A DNA stretch of 60,737 nucleotides from Eubacteriales bacterium (GTDB lineage Bacteria; Bacillota; Clostridia; Oscillospirales; CAG-272): the NCBI GenBank assembly GCA_045533115.1, contig JAZSHF010000072.1, forward strand, positions 1 through 60,737, read 5' to 3'. Below the pieces are notes generated by a model. The model saw nothing but the letters and a program-made list of their open reading frames with translations, had not been told where the DNA came from and made no database searches. Below are positions 7,994 to 36,975 of the stretch, piece by piece; position 1 is the first letter of the stretch, and each line of letters opens with the position of its first letter. The translations under genes and the position numbers were made by a program.

Positions 7994-8281
7994 TCCTATT
8001 CGAAACAGCGGCGAGAAAGGGCTACCATCGCGGTAGCCCTTCCTTATACCCTCACCCCGGCGCTTTACTCATCGCGGCGCCGGTTTCACTTTTGCTTACG
8101 GCATCGAGGCGGCTGTAGATGTTAGCCCATAGTAAGCGGCGAGCAGAATCGGGATATATATGTAAATCCCAAAACACTCTAAAATTTAATATAACCAAAT
8201 TCCGTTTTACATCTTATGTTTAACTTGATAATTTAAGCGCAAAATAATAGTAAAATAAAGATATGAAATGGAGGTTTTGGT

Positions 8282-9124
8282 ATGAAAAAAAGAATTATTA
8301 CCAATCAAACAATAAGCTCGTTTAAGGAGTATTTAATCGAGAACGAAAAAGCAACCGCTACCATCGAAAAGTATATGCGAGATATACGCCTATTTACTGA
8401 ATACGCTACAGACAAGCCCTTGGATAAAGCTCTTGTGTTGGAATACAAGACGTCATTGGAACAGACCTATGCCATCAGAAGTGCAAACTCTATGTTGGCG
8501 GCTCTCAATGCCTTTTTTCGCTTCATCGGGTGGCACGAACTTTGTGTAAAGCAATTTAAGGTGCAAAAAGAGGTGTACTGTTCCGAGGAAAAGGAACTTA
8601 CCAAAGCGGAATACACCGCTCTTGTGAGAGTGGCTGAGCAAAAGGAAAATGAACGCTTATCCCTCGTGGTGCAAACGATCTGCGGAACAGGCATTCGTGT
8701 CAGTGAATTACAAAGTATTACGGTGGAGGCTGTACGCAAAGGAGAGGCAATTGTATCCTGCAAGGGAAAAACAAGAAAAATATTTATTGTAAGCGCCCTT
8801 CGGAAGAAACTGCTTCGATATGCATTAGAACACAAAATAAACTTCGGGATTATTTTCGTGACCAAAAACGGTAAACCTCTTGTCCGCAGTAATATATGGA
8901 GAGAAATGAAGAGTTTGTGTGAACAGGCAGGTGTTTCTCCCCAAAAGGTGTTTCCGCACAACCTACGCCATTTATTTGCGAGAACTTTCTATGGCATCGA
9001 AAAGGATATTGCAAAACTAGCGGATATTCTCGGTCACTCCAACATTAATACCACGCGAATTTATATCATCACAACCGGTGCCGAACATCAGCGACGTATG
9101 GAGAATATGCGGCTAATTATCTAA
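8282..9124 (+). CDS. Tyrosine site-specific recombinase (XerC/D-like, short form), candidate invertase for the adjacent switch
   Basis: 280 aa. Catalytic signature is present: TGIRVSEL (Arg), HNLRHLFA (HxxR) and LGHSNINTTRIY (His...Tyr). RBS GGAGG precedes the ATG. The gene is AT-rich compared with its flanks (by eye). Confidence 0.9.
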   Translation: MKKRIITNQTISSFKEYLIENEKATATIEKYMRDIRLFTEYATDKPLDKALVLEYKTSLEQTYAIRSANSMLAALNAFFRFIGWHELCVKQFKVQKEVYCSEEKELTKAEYTALVRVAEQKENERLSLVVQTICGTGIRVSELQSITVEAVRKGEAIVSCKGKTRKIFIVSALRKKLLRYALEHKINFGIIFVTKNGKPLVRSNIWREMKSLCEQAGVSPQKVFPHNLRHLFARTFYGIEKDIAKLADILGHSNINTTRIYIITTGAEHQRRMENMRLII

Positions 9125-9162
9125 AAAATAAAACCGCTACACTTTCGCAGCGGTTAAATATC

Positions 9163-9183
9163 ACATAATGGTTATTATGTTGT
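9163..9183. repeat. Left inverted repeat (IR-L) of the invertible segment
   Basis: ACATAATGGTTATTATGTTGT. It is the exact reverse complement of 9419-9439. Internally it has palindromic arms ACATAAT/ATTATGT around an asymmetric GGTT centre. Confidence 0.9.
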
Positions 9184-9254
9184 AATAAACAATAAAAATA
9201 AACAGTATACCTCGATTAAATGCTCAAGGGTAATCAAAAATGGGTACAACAAAT

Positions 9255-9286
9255 AAGACCTTTTGAAAAAATAACCAAAAGGTCTT
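9255..9286. terminator. 11-bp hairpin inside the invertible segment (insulating terminator candidate)
   Basis: aagaccttttg-aaaaaataac-caaaaggtctt followed by gtttctc. It lies upstream of the internal promoter. Confidence 0.5.
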
Positions 9287-9344
9287 GTTTCTCACGCCCA
9301 AAATCCGTTATTTTATGTAAATCTCAATTTTTTTGGTAAATCAC

Positions 9345-9373
9345 TTGATTTTTCGTTTGTATTATGCTATACT
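9345..9373 (+). promoter_or_regulatory. Sigma-A-type extended -10 promoter inside the invertible segment
   Basis: TTGATT-17 nt-TATACT, with a TGc extended -10 motif (TG at 9365-9366) within the spacer immediately upstream of the -10. Confidence 0.75.
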
Positions 9374-9418
9374 TTATTGTACTAAAAAGTAACGTGATAT
9401 GTTTGTTCGGCTTTATGA

Positions 9419-9439
9419 ACAACATAATAACCATTATGT
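9419..9439. repeat. Right inverted repeat (IR-R) of the invertible segment
   Basis: ACAACATAATAACCATTATGT, matching the reverse complement of 9163-9183 at 21/21 positions. Confidence 0.9.
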
Positions 9440-9519
9440 TGCCACTATCGTTATTCATTAAGCAAACACATAGTCTTTAGTCCACACGTAAAACGCAAAA
9501 AACCGCGCCTGAGCCTTAG

Positions 9520-9572
9520 AGCCTGTGCCATTTAATCGTTGTATACGATTATGGTACAGGCTTTTCTTTTTT
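9520..9572 (+). terminator. Strong intrinsic terminator in the leader between the switch and the first ORF
   Basis: agcctgtgccat ... atggtacaggct (one G-U pair, with an inner taatcg/cgatta stem) followed by tttctttttt. It lies 44 nt upstream of the TTG start at 9616. Confidence 0.7.
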
Positions 9573-9615
9573 GAAGTTATTTGACGCAACCGAGCACAAA
9601 ACGAGGTGATTCCAT

Positions 9616-9810
9616 TTGAAAAACGAGTTACAGAACAAACCGACAGACACTGATGTAAAAACAGAAAGACGACGACTCCTGTGTCCTTTATGCGGCAAGC
9701 ACACGGTACTGTGGTTGCTTCCCGACACTGTGATTAAGAATTTACCGATTAAATGTAAACGATGCGGAAAAGAATGTATGGTAAATGTCGAACCGCTTGA
9801 CCAAGCTTAA
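9616..9810 (+). CDS. Cysteine-rich KTR-domain-like small zinc-ribbon protein
   Basis: 64 aa with a TTG start and RBS AGGTGA. The pattern CPLCGKHT...DTVIKNLPIKCKRCGKE matches the Cys_rich_KTR layout as I remember it (CPxCGxKT...DTxLKNFPLxCPKCKxE). Confidence 0.65.
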   Translation: MKNELQNKPTDTDVKTERRRLLCPLCGKHTVLWLLPDTVIKNLPIKCKRCGKECMVNVEPLDQA

Positions 9811-9954
9811 TACGACGCATCATCATAAACTCTAAACGATTTTACTGATACTTGCTCCCTTCGCAGAAGACTATGTGTAAACCTGACACAAACGTTTAGC
9901 GTTTGTAATTTTTTGTTGAAATTTGTAGTAAACACTTACAAAGGGGAACTTAAA

Positions 9955-10542
9955 ATGAAACAGGATGACTTAAGCCAGGCATTGATTGATGGCACTATCC
10001 ACGTCATTGCCCGGAACGGACTTGATAAAGCCACAACAAAAGCAATAAGCAAAGCAACAGGTATTAACGAGGTATACATATACCGCCTCTTTGAAAATAA
10101 AGAGAGGTTATTTGAAAAAGCTTTCGAATACCTGGATAATCAACTGTTAGAGAAATGCTTGCTCCACATTGACGTGATGTATATGAGTGAAATAGATTAC
10201 GAGACAAGATGCAGAATTTATTTTTTGGCAATGTGGCGCTTTTTTATCGGTAACAAAGATGAAATTTCTATGTATGTCCATTATTATTACTCGCCGTATT
10301 TCAAGAAGTATTCTGCCGAGGCGCACAAAAAAAGATTTCTGCCGCTTGTAAATAAGTTCAGAGATGCCTTTAAGGAGGAAGCGGCTGTATGGCTGATACT
10401 TAACCATATATTAAACGTAATGCTTGATTTTGCTCTAATGGTACATAACGATGAGATGCCCAAAGAAGATAATTACAGTGAGCATGTGTTTCGAGTTATT
10501 TATCAGTCGGTAAAGCAGTATTTCAAAGCGGCTTCGGCTTGA
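9955..10542 (+). CDS. TetR/AcrR-family transcriptional regulator
   Basis: An N-terminal HTH typical of TetR (ARNGLDKATTKAISKATGINEVYIYRLFENKERLF). The ATG at 9955 has RBS AAAGGGGA. The track ORF starts earlier (9913) with no SD. Confidence 0.85.
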   Translation: MKQDDLSQALIDGTIHVIARNGLDKATTKAISKATGINEVYIYRLFENKERLFEKAFEYLDNQLLEKCLLHIDVMYMSEIDYETRCRIYFLAMWRFFIGNKDEISMYVHYYYSPYFKKYSAEAHKKRFLPLVNKFRDAFKEEAAVWLILNHILNVMLDFALMVHNDEMPKEDNYSEHVFRVIYQSVKQYFKAASA

Positions 10543-10554
10543 AGGCGAGTGTGA

Positions 10555-11124
10555 GTGGATAGACCTATGAATAAAAAATTGAAAAAAGCATTGAAAATTA
10601 CGTCTAACTCGCTGTTGGTTTTGGTTGTTATCCTTGTCATTCTCCTTGTTGGTGTCAGAGCAGTAGGGCTTGACATTCTGACTGTGCTGTCCCCGTCGAT
10701 GGAGCCGAAGTATCCTGTAGGATCACTAATCTACCTTGTGGACGTTGATCCGGCAAAATTAGAGGTCGATGACGTTATCACCTATCGGATATCCGAAAAG
10801 ACCACGGCGACACACCGCATCAAGGAGATTATTCCCGACGAGGACGATCCGAGCATTGTCCGGTTCCGTACCAAAGGCGATAACAACGATGATTATGACG
10901 GCAGTCTCGTGGAATTTGAGCAAGTCGAAGGTAAAGTCATCTTCTGTATCCCGCTTCTCGGCTATTTGGCGGTGTATATCCAAAGTCCGCCCGGGCTCTA
11001 CGTTGCCATCGGCACGGCGCTTGCAATTATTTTCTTCGTGATGATCGTGGATACGGTCACCGATGATAAAAAAGTAAAAAATAAAAATGAACATAAAGGA
11101 GAACACGAAAATGAAAAAAACTAA
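10555..11124 (+). CDS. sipW: Signal peptidase I, SipW/archaeal type
   Basis: One N-terminal and one C-terminal TM helix. Catalytic motifs are SPSMEP (Ser), THRI (His) and TKGDNNDD. An alternative ATG start lies at 10567. The 3' end overlaps the next gene by 14 nt. Confidence 0.85.
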   Translation: MDRPMNKKLKKALKITSNSLLVLVVILVILLVGVRAVGLDILTVLSPSMEPKYPVGSLIYLVDVDPAKLEVDDVITYRISEKTTATHRIKEIIPDEDDPSIVRFRTKGDNNDDYDGSLVEFEQVEGKVIFCIPLLGYLAVYIQSPPGLYVAIGTALAIIFFVMIVDTVTDDKKVKNKNEHKGEHENEKN

Positions 11125-11749
11125 ACCGCTTGTTTTGGCACTGTGTGCAGTCCTACTCGTGGCAGGCGCCATCCTCGGAACCGTTGCTTACTTGCAGGAT
11201 ACTGCCGAGGTAGTCAACACATTCACCGTGGGAAACGTACACTTAAAGCTCGATGAAGCTGTGGTGAACGAAAAGGGCGAACCTACCGGCGGCAGAACCG
11301 AAACCGGCAATGCGTACCACCTCATTCCAGGACAAACTTATACCAAGGATCCCACCGTTACCGTTCTGAAGGGCAGCGAGGAATCCTACGTTCGTATGAT
11401 GCTCACCCTTAACTGCGCGAGTGAGCTGGATGCCATCTTTGCCCCCAACGGTGCTGTTCTTACCGAAATCTTCAAAGGCTACGACGCCAATAACTGGAAT
11501 TACGTTGGTGTGACGAGAGGAAACGATAATACGATCACCTATGAGTTCCGCTATAAGGAAAAGGTTACGCCCGAAAAGGATGCCGACCTCGTTCTCGATG
11601 CACTCTTTGACAGCGTGACAGTTCCCAACACCATGACCGGCGCACAGCTCGAAACCATCGCCGATCTGGAAATTTCCGTAGAAGCTCACGCAATTCAGGC
11701 AGCCGGCTTTAACACTGCCGATGAAGCTTGGGCGGCATTCTCTAAATAA
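11111..11749 (+). CDS. TasA/BsaA-like secreted protein with a SipW-cognate signal peptide (candidate major fibre subunit)
   Basis: 212 aa, RBS AAAGGAG. N-terminus reads ...LLVAGAILGTVAYLQDTAEVVNTFTVGNV (TasA-type signal/N-strand). The C-terminal motif HAIQAAGF..A.EAWAAF is shared with the paralogs. Confidence 0.75.
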   Translation: MKKTKPLVLALCAVLLVAGAILGTVAYLQDTAEVVNTFTVGNVHLKLDEAVVNEKGEPTGGRTETGNAYHLIPGQTYTKDPTVTVLKGSEESYVRMMLTLNCASELDAIFAPNGAVLTEIFKGYDANNWNYVGVTRGNDNTITYEFRYKEKVTPEKDADLVLDALFDSVTVPNTMTGAQLETIADLEISVEAHAIQAAGFNTADEAWAAFSK

Positions 11750-11831: not shown

Positions 11832-12467
11832 ATGTATCGCGGAAAATACTCTACACCGAAGCACAGTCACCGCCGCAGAAGCTCTGCATTGAAGGTAGCT
11901 CTTATGTCTTTTGTGGCGTGTCTCATGATCTTCTCCGTGATAGGCGGCTCTCTTGCGTGGCTGATGACTTCAACCGACCCCATCGTTAACGTGTTCACTT
12001 ACGGCGATATCCGCATAACCCTTACCGAAACAAAGGGTGAAGAACTGGGCGACGGACGCTACTTCAAGATGACCCCCGGCAAGGTGATCGAAAAGGATCC
12101 GAAGATCTCCGTACTTGCCGACAGTGAAGATTGCTGGCTGTTCGTAAAAATCGTCGAGTCCAGCGACAAGGCGCTCAGCGATTACATCGAGTACGCCATT
12201 GCCGACGGTTGGACTGCTCTGCAGGAAGCTCCCGGCGTTTACTTCCGTACAGTCGACAACAGCGCAGAAGCGCAGACCTTCTCCGTACTGAAAGACGATA
12301 AGATTACCGTCAAGGGCAGCGTAACGTCGGAAATGCTCCAGGTACTCAACAGCACCAACTATCCCAAGATGACCTTCACCGGTTACGCCGTACAGCGTGA
12401 TATGAGCATCGACGCAATCGACTCCGCCGCAGAAGCATGGGCACTCATCTGCGAAAGCGGCAACTGA
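11832..12467 (+). CDS. TasA/BsaA-like secreted protein, second paralog
   Basis: 211 aa with a basic N-terminus and TM helix, then GGSLAWLMTSTDPIVNVFTYGDI. The C-terminus YAVQ....AAEAWALI parallels gene 11111. Confidence 0.7.
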   Translation: MYRGKYSTPKHSHRRRSSALKVALMSFVACLMIFSVIGGSLAWLMTSTDPIVNVFTYGDIRITLTETKGEELGDGRYFKMTPGKVIEKDPKISVLADSEDCWLFVKIVESSDKALSDYIEYAIADGWTALQEAPGVYFRTVDNSAEAQTFSVLKDDKITVKGSVTSEMLQVLNSTNYPKMTFTGYAVQRDMSIDAIDSAAEAWALICESGN

Positions 12468-12555: not shown

Positions 12556-14067
12556 ATGAAACTTAAAAACATTCTTCTGCATGGTCTCAGCCTTGTCCTC
12601 GTTGCGGCTCTCGCAATCGGCGGCACTGTGGCTTACCTGCAAGACGATGACAGCGATGTCAACGTAATGACCCTCGGCAACGTAAAGATTGAGCAGCACG
12701 AGTATGAGCGTGTTGTAGAAAACGGCGAGTACAAGAAAGAAACCATCAATGGCGCAGATAGCTATGTTCTGAAGGACTTCACTCAGGGCAAGCCCCTACT
12801 TCCTGCTACTGAAATTGATGCCAATGGCCAGCCCTACAACTATGGTGCAGGCGATTATGATGGCACCCGCGTTAAAATGTCTCAGGTTGGCTCCCACGGC
12901 TCTATGGACGTTTTCGTTAACGAGAACGCTGTCGACAAGTTCGTAACCGTGGAAAACACCGGTAAGACTGATGCTTACGTTCGTACGATTATCGCTTATG
13001 AGCTTGGTTCTGTATCCGAAGATAAGTTTGAAGACGTAATCATGACGAGCTGCTTCATGACTGCTCAGGGAGTTTGGAAGGTTACCGATATAGGTGCTGT
13101 TGAAATTGACGGCAATAACTACTTTGTTTCCGAGTATATCTACAATGGCGCAAAGGCTCTTGGCGGCGTTCATGAAAACGGAGTTCTCCCTGCTGGCGAC
13201 ACTACTTACCCCAGCCTTGCTCAGGTTTACATGAAGGCTACCGCAACCAACGAGGATGTTGAGAAGATCGACGGCAACAAGAATGGCACTTACGATATCC
13301 TTGTCGTTTCCCAGGCTGTTCAGGTTGCGGGCTTTGCTGATGCTGAAACCGCTCTGAACGCTGGCTTCGGTGACATCACCACCACCAATCATCCTTGGGC
13401 TGATGGCGTAAATATCCCCGCCGTTGTTGAAGACGCTGACGGACTCGTTGAAGCGCTTGAAAGCGGTAAGGACGTGGTCCTCAACGATGACGTTAAGATC
13501 GACCCCGCCGGTATGAGTAATGCTTACGGTACCACCGGTATCAACGTTAAGAACGGCCAGACCATCGACGGCAACGGCAACACCCTGGACATCAAGGGCG
13601 CAGGCGGCACTTGGGACTCCGGTATCAACACCACCGGCGGCCTGATCAAGAACCTCACCGTTACCGGCTCCTTCCGCGGTATCTTCATCAACCACAACAG
13701 CTCCTACTCCGAGACTGTTGTTCTTGAGAATGTTATCATTGACGGAACTACTTATACCATCTCCTGCGATCAGGGTATGAACCAGAATTTTGAAGCATAC
13801 AACTCCACCTTCAACGGCTGGACTTCCTATGCTGCAACTCTCGGTAATGCCAAGTTCGAAAATTGCAAATTTGGCGAAGGCAACGGCTATGCATTCTTCC
13901 GTCCCTACGCTCCTACCACCTTCGTGGGCTGCGAGTTCGAGGCTGGCTATACTCTCGACCCGAGAGCTGACGTGACCTTCGAAAACTGCACCTTGAACGG
14001 CGTTGCTTTGACCGACGCTAACATTGCAGAGTTGGTTACAGACACTGCAAAGGTAACAGTAAAGTAA
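12556..14067 (+). CDS. TasA-like N-terminal domain fused to a beta-helix-like C-terminal domain (large fibre-associated subunit)
   Basis: 503 aa. The signal region reads LVAALAIGGTVAYLQDDDSDVNVMTLGNVKIEQ. The TasA-like core ends at SQAVQVAGF. The C-terminal ~200 aa are rich in N/G/T turns (GNGNTLDIKGAGG, IKNLTVTG, ENVIIDG, FENCKFG, FENCTLNG), typical of a parallel beta-helix. Confidence 0.7.
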   Translation: MKLKNILLHGLSLVLVAALAIGGTVAYLQDDDSDVNVMTLGNVKIEQHEYERVVENGEYKKETINGADSYVLKDFTQGKPLLPATEIDANGQPYNYGAGDYDGTRVKMSQVGSHGSMDVFVNENAVDKFVTVENTGKTDAYVRTIIAYELGSVSEDKFEDVIMTSCFMTAQGVWKVTDIGAVEIDGNNYFVSEYIYNGAKALGGVHENGVLPAGDTTYPSLAQVYMKATATNEDVEKIDGNKNGTYDILVVSQAVQVAGFADAETALNAGFGDITTTNHPWADGVNIPAVVEDADGLVEALESGKDVVLNDDVKIDPAGMSNAYGTTGINVKNGQTIDGNGNTLDIKGAGGTWDSGINTTGGLIKNLTVTGSFRGIFINHNSSYSETVVLENVIIDGTTYTISCDQGMNQNFEAYNSTFNGWTSYAATLGNAKFENCKFGEGNGYAFFRPYAPTTFVGCEFEAGYTLDPRADVTFENCTLNGVALTDANIAELVTDTAKVTVK

Positions 14068-14152: not shown

Positions 14153-14245
14153 AAAGGCATAAAGCTTTCTTCGATATAAGACCTGCAGGATCGAAGAAAA
14201 GTTAAGTCTTGAATGCAGGCAAATATCAAAAGGAGGCATACATAT

Positions 14246-16168
14246 ATGTCAAAACTCAAAAAGGTGCTCTTAATGTGCACCACTTATGTGTTGGTTGCAG
14301 CTCTCGCAATCGGCGGCACTGTTGCGTATCTTCAGGATGAAGATAGCGCAGTTAACGTTATGACACTTGGTAACGTTAAAATCGAGCAGATCGAGCTTCA
14401 GCGTGCTGAAGGCGTTGCTCACAACGCAGGTGAAGCAGGAAATGGAAACGGCGTTAAGAACGGCGATCTTGTAGATTTCGTTCAGGATCAGCCGCTTTAT
14501 CCTGCAGTTCCCAAGAACAATGCGGCGACAGACTATACCGCAGAAGCAACCGACTTGTTCTTCTGGGGCGACTACGTTTATTCAGGAACCGCAGGTAACG
14601 GTCTTTGGAACGATAGCAAGCTTTCCAACGTAATGGATAAGTTCGTGTTCGTAAAGAATACCGGTAAGACGGAAGCTTACTTCCGTACCCTCATCGCTTT
14701 TGAGTGTCCCGAGGGAATGGAGTTCAGCGAAGGTCCTGACAAGGAACTTATGATGAACATCAATGGTTCTGAAACCCTCTATGAGTGGGAAGAAATCGGC
14801 TATATTACCGTAGACGAAACTCGTTATCTTGTGATGGAAGCAACCTATCTCAACCCCCTCGCTCCCGGCAACACAGCTCATCCTTCGCTTCTTCAGGTTG
14901 TTCTTACTCACAATGCAACCAATGAAGATATGGAGCTTCTCGGTGGTACTTACGAAATACTCGTTCTCTCTCAGGCTGTTCAGGCTGCTGGTTTTGATAA
15001 CGCCGCTATCGCTCTTAATACTGCTTTTGGTGAATCCGAAGTATACGCTCCCGAGTGGTTCGGCGGCGTACTCGCAGATCACGCCGGTGACACTTGGGAC
15101 GGTACTGTCGATACCTCTTGGTATGACCCGGCTTCCCCTGCTACCGAATATAATATCACCACAGCGGAACAGCTTGCAGGTCTTGCTGAGCTTGTTTCCG
15201 GTGATACTACATTTAAGGGTGTTACCTTCACATTGATGAACGACCTTGATCTTTATTGTGAAGATACCACTGCAAGTGCTGACGGCGATCCTTTGACGTT
15301 TAGACCGATCGGTGATCATTCAAAGAATGGTACTTTTGAAGGAACTTTTGATGGTAATGGAAAGGTTATTTACAATCTTTATCAAAATGGTTGGGATCTC
15401 GGTTATCAGTGGGGAGTATATGGTTCTTACGGTCTGTTCGGCAATCTGAACGATGCTACCGTAAAGAACTTGACCCTCTCCGGTGGCGAAAGCTATATCG
15501 AAGGTGGCGACGTATCCTTTGTTGCCGGTAGTGCTACCGGTACTTGCGTATTTGAGAACATTACGATAGAAGACAGCGTTGCAGCGACCTACAACAACGG
15601 TTGCGGCGGTATTATCGGTTGGTCCGGTGCCGGCAATTATACTTTCAAAAACATTACCATCGCTGAGGATGCGGTTCTTGGCGGTCTTTGGGGCTCCTTC
15701 GATAGTTCTATCGGTGGTATTGTCGGACAGGGCGAGCCCGGTGCGACCTATAACTTCGAGAATGTAGACATCAAGTGTCGTCTTGACGTTTACAATGACG
15801 TTACCGCTGCATATAAGTATTACATTTATCGTATGTCCGGTATGCTGATTGGACGTCTTGAAGAAACGACAACGATCGATGGCACCAATTATCCGGATAT
15901 GAGCAAGTACAACATCACCTGTGCTGATGTAACAGTTACCTACAACGACTGGGCAAATTATCACTACTGTGTTGTAGCCGGTAAGACTGCATGGCGCGTA
16001 GAACCCGGATATGCTTATGGCGGAATTCCTGCAGATCACGATCATAGCACGTGTGCAATTTGTTGTAATGAGCTTCTCGTATTTGATTCACTCTTCGGTG
16101 GAGATCAGTACGGCGTTAGAGGTATTACAACTTACGACGGCGTAACTGTTGTTTACAACAACAAGTAA
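14246..16168 (+). CDS. TasA-like N-terminal domain fused to a large GLUG/beta-helix-like adhesin-type domain
   Basis: 640 aa from the ATG at 14246 (RBS AAAGGAGG). The N-terminus is nearly identical in protein sequence to gene 12556 (LVAALAIGGTVAYLQDEDSAVNVMTLGNVKIEQ). The C-terminal segment ITTAEQLAGLAELVSGDTTFKGVTFTLMNDLDL...FRPIG...FEGTFDGNGKVIYNL resembles repeats of Gram-positive surface proteins. Confidence 0.7.
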   Translation: MSKLKKVLLMCTTYVLVAALAIGGTVAYLQDEDSAVNVMTLGNVKIEQIELQRAEGVAHNAGEAGNGNGVKNGDLVDFVQDQPLYPAVPKNNAATDYTAEATDLFFWGDYVYSGTAGNGLWNDSKLSNVMDKFVFVKNTGKTEAYFRTLIAFECPEGMEFSEGPDKELMMNINGSETLYEWEEIGYITVDETRYLVMEATYLNPLAPGNTAHPSLLQVVLTHNATNEDMELLGGTYEILVLSQAVQAAGFDNAAIALNTAFGESEVYAPEWFGGVLADHAGDTWDGTVDTSWYDPASPATEYNITTAEQLAGLAELVSGDTTFKGVTFTLMNDLDLYCEDTTASADGDPLTFRPIGDHSKNGTFEGTFDGNGKVIYNLYQNGWDLGYQWGVYGSYGLFGNLNDATVKNLTLSGGESYIEGGDVSFVAGSATGTCVFENITIEDSVAATYNNGCGGIIGWSGAGNYTFKNITIAEDAVLGGLWGSFDSSIGGIVGQGEPGATYNFENVDIKCRLDVYNDVTAAYKYYIYRMSGMLIGRLEETTTIDGTNYPDMSKYNITCADVTVTYNDWANYHYCVVAGKTAWRVEPGYAYGGIPADHDHSTCAICCNELLVFDSLFGGDQYGVRGITTYDGVTVVYNNK

Positions 16169-16627: not shown

Positions 16628-16695
16628 CGCCCATCACTCTCTGATGGGCGGCAATCAAAGGGTACAAGCGTGGTTCTTGTGCCTTTTGATTGCTG
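16628..16695 (+). repeat. Two-hairpin intercistronic element, copy C
   Basis: Hairpin 1 is cgcccatca-ctctc-tgatgggcg. Hairpin 2 is ggcaatcaaagggtacaag...cttgtgccttttgattgct. It overlaps the spurious ATG of track ORF 16690. Confidence 0.75.
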
Positions 16696-36458: not shown

Positions 36459-36638
36459 CAAAAACACAGCCCCATTTGCTGCGACACAAACTTTCACTCC
36501 CTTAATAGGTATGCGAAACCGGGCATGTATTTTTACAATAATAAAAATACACACCTATAAAGAGAGTTATTCAGTTTGTGTCGCATTCTCATTTTATCAC
36601 GGTAAAGAGCTTTTGTCAATAGCGGGATTTGCGTTTTA

Positions 36639-36975
36639 CCTTCTCCTGAGGGAGACGGGGGACCGCGGTAGGTTTCGCGTAGCGAAAACTACTGAGTGGC
36701 TGGATGAGGAGTACGTTCCCAATATAGACACCTCAGGAACAACCAAAGCTCATTTCATTCGCTTTGAGACACCTCATCCGCCCCTTCGGGGCACCTTCTC
36801 CCGCTGGAGAAGGTATAACGGTTGCTTCGCATCCTACACCTCATCCGCCAAGTGCCCGAGATCCTTCGACTACGCGATGAGGGGTTCCCCGAAGCGAATG
36901 AAATGAGCTTTGGGGGTTCGCGATAAGGATGACAACGGGCACTTGCCACCTTCCCCTGAGGGGAAGGCAAGACAG
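36639..36975. repeat. Mosaic GC-rich hairpin repeat patch (same family as 1-500)
   Basis: 36769-36820 is identical to 206-257. The module ggggttccccgaagcgaatgaaatgagctttgggggttcgcg is present. A 22-nt internal inverted copy links 36743-36764 to 36892-36913. Track ORFs 36511-36906 and 36755-36970 are translations of these repeats. Confidence 0.8.

Follow-up and report, generated by a model that had tools for sequence, protein, structure and literature searches.

The fimS element of Escherichia coli type-1 fimbriae carries a promoter on about 0.3 kb of DNA, with recombinase gene(s) just upstream and a surface-structure operon downstream. Together with FimB/FimE it is the functionally closest described system to the locus analysed here, which lies at positions 9163-9439 of a 60,737-nucleotide contig of a Eubacteriales bacterium (JAZSHF010000072.1, assembly GCA_045533115.1); this whole stretch is referred to as the window. 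Two inverted sites there enclose a 235-bp segment next to a gene for an Xer-like tyrosine recombinase, and the segment is very probably a recombinase-driven invertible promoter (inverton) in a minimal two-site form. As in fimS, the tyrosine recombinase is adjacent, the promoter lies inside the element, a surface operon follows, and ON and OFF would be set by promoter direction. Unlike fimS, the window has a single recombinase gene whose product is Xer-like, scoring 27-29 bits with the FimB/FimE models against cut-offs near 220 (NF007370 and NF007371, 28.6 and 27.1 bits vs 221 and 222). The sites also differ: fimS has 9-bp repeats, whereas those of the window are lox/dif-like palindromes of 21 bp around an asymmetric centre of 4-6 nt. 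The switch in the window has predicted built-in terminators on both sides together with a leader attenuator. Invertons are well known as a kind; the features of this family are its diversified centres, its insulation, a shuttling cassette found in relatives and the leader attenuator.

In Clostridioides difficile, RecV works from a distance on switches that have dissimilar repeats, and the flgB switch lies downstream of its promoter and acts after initiation. The targets of RecV include the flagellar switch and others such as cwpV (PMC5386303, PMC5903667), and the Rho factor takes part in phase variation of the flgB switch (PMC7446863). The RecV switches (cwpV, flgB, cmrRST) share with our locus a Clostridia tyrosine recombinase, short segments flanked by inverted repeats, surface or motility operons downstream, a heterogeneous population as the outcome and an involvement of termination; compared by architecture, our locus differs in having its own adjacent recombinase, a promoter inside the segment and identical partner sites.

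In the mpl system of Mycoplasma penetrans and the Vpma/Xer1 system of Mycoplasma agalactiae, an Xer-family recombinase encoded next to surface-protein genes inverts promoter DNA; either one promoter is moved among several genes or many independent switches are served by few recombinases. We know of no terminator cassettes described for these systems. The likeness to the window lies in an Xer-like recombinase beside surface-protein genes that flips short promoter DNA, whereas the Mycoplasma cargo consists of lipoproteins and the phylogenetic group is different. The Mpi/Tsr systems of Bacteroides differ from the window in recombinase family and site logic. Gut Bacteroidales invertons resemble it as invertible promoters flanked by inverted repeats upstream of surface-structure genes (PMC11892184, PMC11602134), and the Clostridia-like Firmicutes_A have a median of 3 invertons per genome in the inverton catalogue (PMC11892184). 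The window's repeat was not found in two supplementary files of that hCom2 catalogue.

The operon downstream encodes a SipW-type signal peptidase and secreted substrates, as do sipW-bsaA of Clostridium perfringens and tapA-sipW-tasA of Bacillus subtilis, which are expressed in a subset of the population. The bimodality of sipW-bsaA arises from a two-component system and PilA2 (PMC7395162). In Bacillus, too, regulatory circuits bring it about. In the window, unlike in these systems, heterogeneity would be genetic, through DNA inversion, and homology of the cargo to TasA/BsaA is not established. In our literature search, SipW or TasA did not come up in any paper together with invertons or invertible promoters. 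Finally, the sites follow the plan of loxP, FRT and dif, with inverted binding arms around an asymmetric overlap that sets polarity, a plan with which the co-variation of partner centres described below is consistent. They differ from these sites in their arms of 7-10 bp, in a variable centre of 4-6 nt with at least 31 natural variants, and in serving local promoter inversion rather than dimer resolution or phage and plasmid functions.

Two inverted sites and a predicted promoter beside a recombinase gene

The recombinase gene and the parts of the switch are as follows.

8282-9124, + strand: Xer-like tyrosine recombinase of 280 amino acids (Pfam Phage_integrase, 1.9e-25, and an N-terminal SAM-like domain)
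9122-9155, - strand: predicted terminator (scan), hairpin 9132-9155 followed on the minus strand by TTATTTTTTA, T-run 9131-9122
9163-9183, + strand: left recombination site (IRL), ACATAATGGTTATTATGTTGT, with core ACATAAT-GGTT-ATTATGT (9163-9180) and inner TGT
9184-9418, either strand: invertible segment P, 235 bp, which relatives carry either way round while its flanks stay the same
9251-9290, both strands: internal bidirectional terminator-like hairpin, stem AGACCTTTTG / CAAAAGGTCT, nearly invariant in 29 segments
9296-9326, + strand: conserved block of box1 GCCCAAAATCCGTT (9296-9309) and box2 TGTAAATCTCA (9316-9326), just upstream of the -35
9345-9373, + strand: predicted invertible promoter TTGATT-17-TATACT, with -35 at 9345-9350, -10 at 9368-9373 and TG at 9365-9366 (scan)
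9419-9439, + strand: right recombination site (IRR), core ACATAAT-AACC-ATTATGT (9422-9439) and inner ACA

An earlier reading of this DNA, made from the letters alone (the sequence-only reading), had described an exact 21/21 inverted repeat, and the repeat search agrees: IRR is the reverse complement of IRL over 21 nt (100% complementary), with 235 nt between the arms. When the window was block-shuffled 100 times, no perfect separated inverted repeat longer than 15 nt arose, and the core pattern ACATAATNNNNATTATGT (ACATAAT-NNNN-ATTATGT) has just two occurrences in 60.7 kb, where 0.24 would be expected. The window thus has the short segment between inverted repeats that is typical of a fimS-type inverton (21/21, 235 bp), and its two sites set it apart from shufflons, which have three or more. 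Each site is a 7+4+7 palindrome whose arms reach 10 nt on the inner side, and its centre is asymmetric, GGTT in IRL and AACC in IRR (TGGTTA and TAACCA when taken as 6 nt), which is the lox/dif-like layout that had been proposed. Because of this asymmetry the two sites are in inverted rather than direct orientation, so that recombination between them inverts the segment rather than excising it. Segment P contains no credible open reading frame (ORF), only small unconserved ones. Flipped in silico, its left junction reads GGTTAAATATC-ACATAATGGTTATTATGTTGT-TCATAAAGCCGAAC and its right junction CTGTTTATTTTTATTGTTTATT-ACAACATAATAACCATTATGT-TGCCACTATCG.

The recombinase gene ends 38 nt before IRL, close to the distance of about 40 nt given earlier, and its product is intact as had been claimed from the R, HxxR and Y motifs: in addition to the Pfam match, the catalytic set R139, K161/163, H226-x-x-R229, H252 and Y261 is present. 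Its best NCBIfam matches are XerA, XerD and XerC, all far under their cut-offs (131.9, 111.9 and 108.4 bits vs 220, 329.6 and 335), and its best sequence match in the PDB is the XerC-like protein 4a8e (8e-22). The locus does not fit XerC/XerD/XerA-dif dimer resolution, in which a single dif site acts by direct-repeat resolution: no match reaches equivalog level, two inverted sites adjoin the gene, and some genomes have two such modules. Its adjacency to the sites and its co-conservation with them suggest a site-specific recombinase dedicated to this switch.

The promoter has a spacer of 17 nt ending in TGc and a predicted transcription start at about 9380, and as assembled it points at the operon, which is the ON orientation. 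This agrees with the extended -10 promoter originally proposed and is supported by an alignment of 29 homologous segments, each oriented by similarity: the -35 (T165, T166, G167) and the extended -10 (T185, G186, T188, A189, T190, T193) are invariant or nearly so, and few columns of the segment are as well conserved, irrespective of how it is oriented. The conserved blocks are the hairpin stem, GCCCAAAATCCGTT-N8-TGTAAATCTCA, the promoter (CTTG, TGnTATAAT) and the first ~40 transcribed nt. An outward-facing promoter inside the segment is thus predicted computationally, and the element recurs at the equivalent position in most of the 80 switches compiled below. On the other strand, where the sequence-only reading saw no second promoter, the scan lists a weak candidate (TTACCA-18-TAAAAT, 9339-9310) whose -35 is not conserved in relatives.

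Two hairpins could insulate this promoter. The internal one had been noticed at 9255-9286, and folding confirms it, with 12-15 pairs and -17 kcal/mol on either strand (z = -6.7 and -3.9). Since it lies between the recombinase gene and the downstream DNA in either orientation it can block read-through, and we infer that it insulates promoter and operon from transcription of the recombinase gene whichever way the segment lies. The other hairpin, at 9132-9155 (-9.7 kcal/mol, z = -4.0), is conserved in two relatives (L011 and L161) and scores as a minus-strand terminator, so OFF-state transcripts should end at the recombinase stop codon. This runs against the earlier suggestion that a flip would send antisense transcription through the recombinase gene, since the terminator at 9155-9132 should stop it.

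Box1 (GCCCAAAMTCCGTT) and box2 (TGTAAATCTCA) are short motifs that also stand, with their order permuted, before the recombinase gene. At either place about 25 of 35 close loci have them, and elsewhere they are rare. They may bind a regulator, as a shared site, or act as an UP-type element.

Orientation of the segment in related loci

Relatives of the recombinase were sought in one genome per species, which gave 467 encoding stretches, and the best 80 of these 467 were examined; almost all are metagenome-assembled genomes (MAGs) from the guts of animals and humans and belong to Acutalibacteraceae or other Clostridia. A metagenome scan added further loci, and 80 non-redundant homologous switches were compiled from Clostridia MAGs and metagenomes. 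The sequence-only reading had proposed comparing homologous loci for both orientations and held that loss of the repeat pair there would count against it. The pair recurs, about 40 and 300 nt past the recombinase stop, in nearly every locus with enough sequence. Its arms are constant (ACATAAY / RTTATGT) and its 6-nt centres come in 31 different forms, yet in 86 of 87 loci the centre of the left site is the exact reverse complement of that of the right site, a match that is expected if recombining partner sites need identical overlap regions. Such a family, with 31 matched centres on constant arms, is a natural data set on the diversification of tyrosine-recombinase sites. The single locus with mismatched centres (GGTT vs ACCC) is a contig of ERZ808032 (L081), probably a chimeric assembly of two strains or of paralogous modules.

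Both orientations occur in nature among these homologous loci. With the promoter as the mark of orientation, the 80 non-redundant switches divide into 30 in which it faces the operon, 34 in which it faces the recombinase gene and 16 that are ambiguous; the two-site switches of relatives include 13 '+' and 21 '-'. By BLAST the segment lies on the opposite strand in 13 loci (L004, L008, L015, L020, L021, L023, L028, L030, L032, L039, L040, L041 and L043) while recombinase, KTR and TetR genes stay on the + strand. The closest comparison is that of L018 and L086, whose recombinase genes are 98.0% identical and whose left flanks are 97% identical: their segments match at 95.5% only after one of them is reverse-complemented and at 61% otherwise. 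The window's own segment likewise matches those of L015 and L008 (82-84%) only after reverse-complementing. In L040 and L041, with recombinase genes 99.6% identical, a small cassette (described below) lies on opposite sides.

Chimeric and broken contigs point in the same direction. One contig assembled at k = 141 (L011) repeats its own left flank at its end, as an exact reverse complement of 138 nt, a hairpin path which implies that the reads of one sample included both junction types. Of 80 genome contigs, 17 break off within 450 nt past the recombinase stop, compared with 6 that do so within 450 nt before its start, and a Logan contig (L162) begins 7 nt before the first site. An active switch would account for such recurrent contig breaks and hairpin chimeras beside the recombinase gene in metagenome assemblies. 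Taken together, the flipped segments, the co-varying centres and the conservation of the promoter bear out the core of what was first proposed, a promoter flip next to a recombinase with the ON state as assembled.

Several genomes carry two recombinase-switch modules (L011/L013, L002/L024, L054/L062 and L075/L076). Two of them have the centre TGGTTA in both copies and in the other two the centres differ, which bears on whether centre diversity bars recombination between paralogous switches; diversification may keep such switches from cross-reacting. A recombinase clade 55-56% identical to the window's, on human-gut contigs (L117-L160), has no inverted site pair. It has instead one to three tandem units of ~320 bp between the recombinase and the downstream gene, each with a TTGACA..TATAAT-like promoter and a small ORF, in copy numbers that vary between samples, and it was set aside as a different arrangement.

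The leader hairpin, the operon and rival explanations

Downstream of the switch the following features are found.

9519-9574, + strand: leader hairpin T1 (9519-9563) with a U tract (9564-9574), an attenuator-like intrinsic terminator between switch and first gene
9616-9810, + strand: Cys_rich_KTR small zinc-ribbon protein (KTR), 64 amino acids (Pfam PF14205, 4.3e-09), conserved in many relatives
9888-9916, + strand: second terminator-like hairpin, CAAACG..CGTTTG with a T-run, before the TetR gene (scan)
9955-10542, + strand: TetR-family regulator (Pfam TetR_N, 3.1e-09), after the switch in most relatives
10555-11124, + strand: SipW-type (archaeal-type) signal peptidase I (NCBIfam TIGR02228, 84.5 bits vs cut-off 51.9)
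11087-11749, 11832-12467, 12556-14067 and 14213-16168, + strand: four secreted-protein genes with SipW-cognate N-termini (TIGR04088)
16690-17409, + strand: protein with a streptococcal-pilin isopeptide-linkage domain (TIGR03786, 3.4e-11), probably the last gene of the unit
17507-17538, both strands: perfect 16+16 palindrome AAAAAATCCATCGTAA / TTACGATGGATTTTTT (repeat search), likely a bidirectional terminator closing the unit

The leader from promoter to first gene is 236 nt long and contains T1. This hairpin (-29 kcal/mol, z = -5.1) is stronger on the + strand and is followed by UUUUCUUUUUU; all 19 of its pairs are kept in 17 of 17 relatives, with substitutions that are mostly transitions and G.U-compatible on the + strand, and it is more conserved than the surrounding coding DNA. 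An invariant GCCTGAGCC (9507-9515) precedes it. Rfam has no family for any part of the window, leader and hairpins included; a weak match of mir-1264 to the internal hairpin was discarded as chance. T1 may be a protein-dependent attenuator of a new type. In two relatives (L040 and L047) a further promoter of consensus sequence, TTGACA-17-TATAAT, lies between switch and T1, so that T1 also serves promoters that are not invertible.

The second hairpin belongs to a stretch at 9888-9945, just before the TetR start, in which the palindrome CAAACG-TTTAG-CGTTTG and its T-run are joined by a second palindromic box, TGTAGTAAACACTTACA. A CAAACG-N-CGTTTG-like element also precedes TetR in loci that have no KTR gene, and the palindrome at 9888-9916 could be a TetR operator rather than a terminator.

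The cargo had been described as a SipW/TasA-like fibre. The secretion part of that description holds: the peptidase passes TIGR02228, though it remains under the SipW equivalog cut-off (91.5 bits vs 190), and TIGR04088 (cut-off 19) gives 25.9 and 19.1 bits for two of the secreted proteins and 18.1 for a third, together indicating a SipW-dependent secretion module. For the product of the 11832 gene the SipW-type N-terminus was assigned by eye and no family matches even at E up to 1; the product of 12556-14067 also has a pectate-lyase-like adhesive domain (Pectate_lyase_5). The TasA fold and the fibre, on the other hand, are unproven. Only residues 18-60 match Peptidase_M73, the TasA/camelysin family, and weakly (17.4 bits vs cut-off 22.5), as do 6 of 12 homologues, and single-sequence and profile searches of the PDB returned nothing relevant. 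A single-sequence AlphaFold2 (AF2) model was poor, with a predicted local distance difference test (pLDDT) score of 48.6; an alignment-based model reached a mean pLDDT of 70.8 with a confident beta-sandwich core, for which Foldseek found no match at E <= 0.001 and only generic beta-sandwich (cohesin-like) folds at E >= 0.005. The linkage recombinase-switch-(KTR)-TetR-SipW-secreted protein is kept in most relatives, down to ~60-66% recombinase identity.

We propose that the Xer-like recombinase (8282-9124) would bind the two palindromic sites ACATAAT-NNNN-ATTATGT, pair them through their identical inverted centres (TGGTTA / TAACCA) and flip the 235-bp segment. When ON, the promoter would fire rightwards from ~9380 through IRR and the leader into KTR-TetR-SipW and the four genes with SipW-type signals. 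When OFF, it would fire leftwards into the minus-strand terminator by the recombinase stop codon, and the internal hairpin, placed between recombinase gene and operon, would block read-through. T1 would form a second layer of control that is independent of orientation. Catalysis by this recombinase, the transcription start, terminator function and phase-variable expression are here predicted from sequence. If the proposal is correct, uncultured gut Acutalibacteraceae/Clostridia would have heritable and reversible ON/OFF control of SipW-dependent proteins with adhesin-like domains, which would likely affect adhesion, biofilm matrix, or exposure to the immune system or phages. A promoter with insulating terminators and a movable cassette could also provide orthogonal genetic switches in Firmicutes.

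Several observations weigh against an active invertible promoter that governs this operon. The assignment of 8282-9124 as the invertase draws on adjacency and co-conservation, and inversion, shown for the family, is predicted from it for the window's genome. Exact look-ups of the recombinase, TetR and TrkA proteins found no other assembly of the same strain, and the nearest relatives (L161 and L162; 97% nucleotide identity, reached via the 11087 secreted protein) are both P+. The window's -10, TATACT, is one step from the family consensus TATAAT. Operons whose first secreted protein is 87-88% identical occur without this switch, so the cargo does not depend on it. Finally, partial-transcript folding and a duplex search found no competing antiterminator for T1, and with this strong, conserved hairpin and a second one behind it much ON-state transcription may stop before the operon. 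This is the main uncertainty in the simple phase variation of the operon that had been suggested: a probably flippable promoter faces the operon, but T1 and the second hairpin intervene. The secreted proteins probably cannot be expressed without the ON orientation, yet need more than that; that orientation alone gates them is close to an even call, with a slight lean in favour.

A more radical version, unlikely but deserving serious attention, is that the switch is real and yet not the sole gate of the secreted proteins: most ON transcripts would end at T1 as a ~190-nt leader RNA, the main determinant of expression of KTR-TetR-SipW and the genes behind them would be regulated read-through or antitermination, TetR or other promoters, and inversion would only modulate it or would control the leader RNA itself. 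The stability of T1 and the conservation of its 19 pairs with + strand G.U-compatible variation favour this version, as do the failure to find an alternative antiterminator pairing, the T-run hairpin before TetR, the extra promoter upstream of T1 in two relatives and several weaker promoter-like sites found by the scan at 9797-10287. However, KTR starts only ~40 nt past T1, which leaves no room for a promoter of its own, and the protein is conserved, so some transcripts must pass T1; the conserved linkage of switch and operon also argues that the operon is the regulated target.

An improbable alternative is that the switch is a fossil, in which loss of a terminator cassette (S, see below) left a segment that no longer inverts appreciably and an operon that is constitutively promoter-ON. 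Consistent with this are the clean loss of 64 bp (S and one site) relative to the closest relative, the P+ state of both close relatives and our failure to find an opposite-orientation copy of the window's exact sequence; yet the sites are perfect (21/21), the recombinase ORF and its catalytic residues are intact, and two-site relatives are found in either orientation in the numbers given above. That the repeats instead bound a mobile element, or serve as attachment sites for an integrative island with the adjacent recombinase as integrase, is very improbable. The module does begin at ~8156 in differing contexts (TrkH/TrkA in the window, CotJB/Mn-catalase in L161), its GC content of 34-40% is below that of its flanks, and related operons adjoin another integrase. 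But the sites are inverted, which gives inversion rather than excision, there is no target-site duplication (ATATC vs TGCCA), the 235-bp segment encodes nothing, and across diverged genomes its place between recombinase and operon is fixed and only its orientation changes. The same absence of a duplication and fixed position, and the restriction of the pattern to this one place in the window, also speak against a transposable element of the miniature inverted-repeat (MITE) or insertion sequence (IS) kind. We give almost no credence to operator palindromes, for example for TetR, or a chance repeat that does not recombine; each site is palindromic and a TetR regulator is encoded nearby, but shuffles never gave more than 15 nt, and the flipped segments, the co-varying centres and the chimeric contig ends would be left unexplained.

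Among the switch-less operons, some (L163-L177, with P0043 or P0033) adjoin a different, divergently transcribed phage-type integrase of 368 amino acids. A full site pair is lacking there, and only an inverted repeat of 11 nt, AACATAATATT / AATATTATGTT, with arms ~126 nt apart, resembles the half-sites of the switch. Most contigs with near-identical secreted proteins (P0043, P0033, P0012) have the site pair replaced by such a neighbouring divergent integrase, and they were uninformative for orientation.

Multi-site relatives, module edges and other repeats

The description of the locus as a two-site inverton is accurate for the window and incomplete for the family, in which 33 of 80 switches have 3-5 sites. 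What the additional sites enclose is non-coding, terminator cassettes rather than pieces of genes; relatives with a cassette include L001, L004, L020, L029, L040/L041 and L161, and it is absent from 9163-9439 in the window. In close relatives cassette S is 45 bp long and carries a unidirectional intrinsic terminator, CCGATGTT-loop-AACATCGG-TTTTTT. It lies on either side of the promoter segment, and whichever side it occupies, its terminator faces outwards, away from the switch. Each promoter direction occurs with each position of S, which makes four combinations, and L004 has S on both sides. Three-site forms would therefore behave as four-state switches, of which only "S left, promoter right" would be fully open. 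Compared with L161, the window shows a clean 64-bp indel consisting of S and one site, which is the product expected if the two directly repeated sites on either side of S recombine; the window is thus a minimal two-site derivative that has lost the cassette. The broader claim, that the window belongs to a large undescribed family of self-contained modules in gut Clostridia, in which a single lineage of Xer-like recombinases uses sites with at least 31 centres, about 40% of whose members have a shuttling four-state terminator cassette, and that SipW proteins are phase-variable here, we hold tentatively and judge to fall a little short of an even chance.

Two further features lie upstream of the recombinase gene.

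8143-8213, + strand: conserved left edge of the module, with box2 (TGTAAATCcCA, 8161-8171) and a box1-like AAATTCCGTTTT (~8196-8207)
8220-8248, + strand: candidate recombinase promoter TTAACT-17-AATAAT, by consensus scan only, in a region conserved in relatives

The left edge thus sits upstream of the candidate promoter, and a direct repeat ties it to the interior of the switch. It is kept upstream of the recombinase across loci whose genes further upstream differ. From ~8156 to ~17540 the module (recombinase, switch, regulators, SipW and secreted proteins) appears movable as a whole: it follows TrkH/TrkA in the window and CotJB/Mn-catalase in L161 and lies elsewhere in others. The part from recombinase to TetR, at 34-40% GC, is lower than its surroundings.

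Two other repeats stand out in the window. The imperfect 36-nt GC-rich inverted repeat at 52-87 / 323-358 is 75% complementary and also has 235 nt between its arms. At 36600-36970, downstream of an mnmA-like gene, lies a GC-rich structured intergenic element of ~370 nt (-154 kcal/mol, z = -4.9), with no recombinase nearby and no Rfam match; within it, a 22-nt repeat (36743-36764 / 36892-36913) is the only other long perfect inverted repeat of the window.

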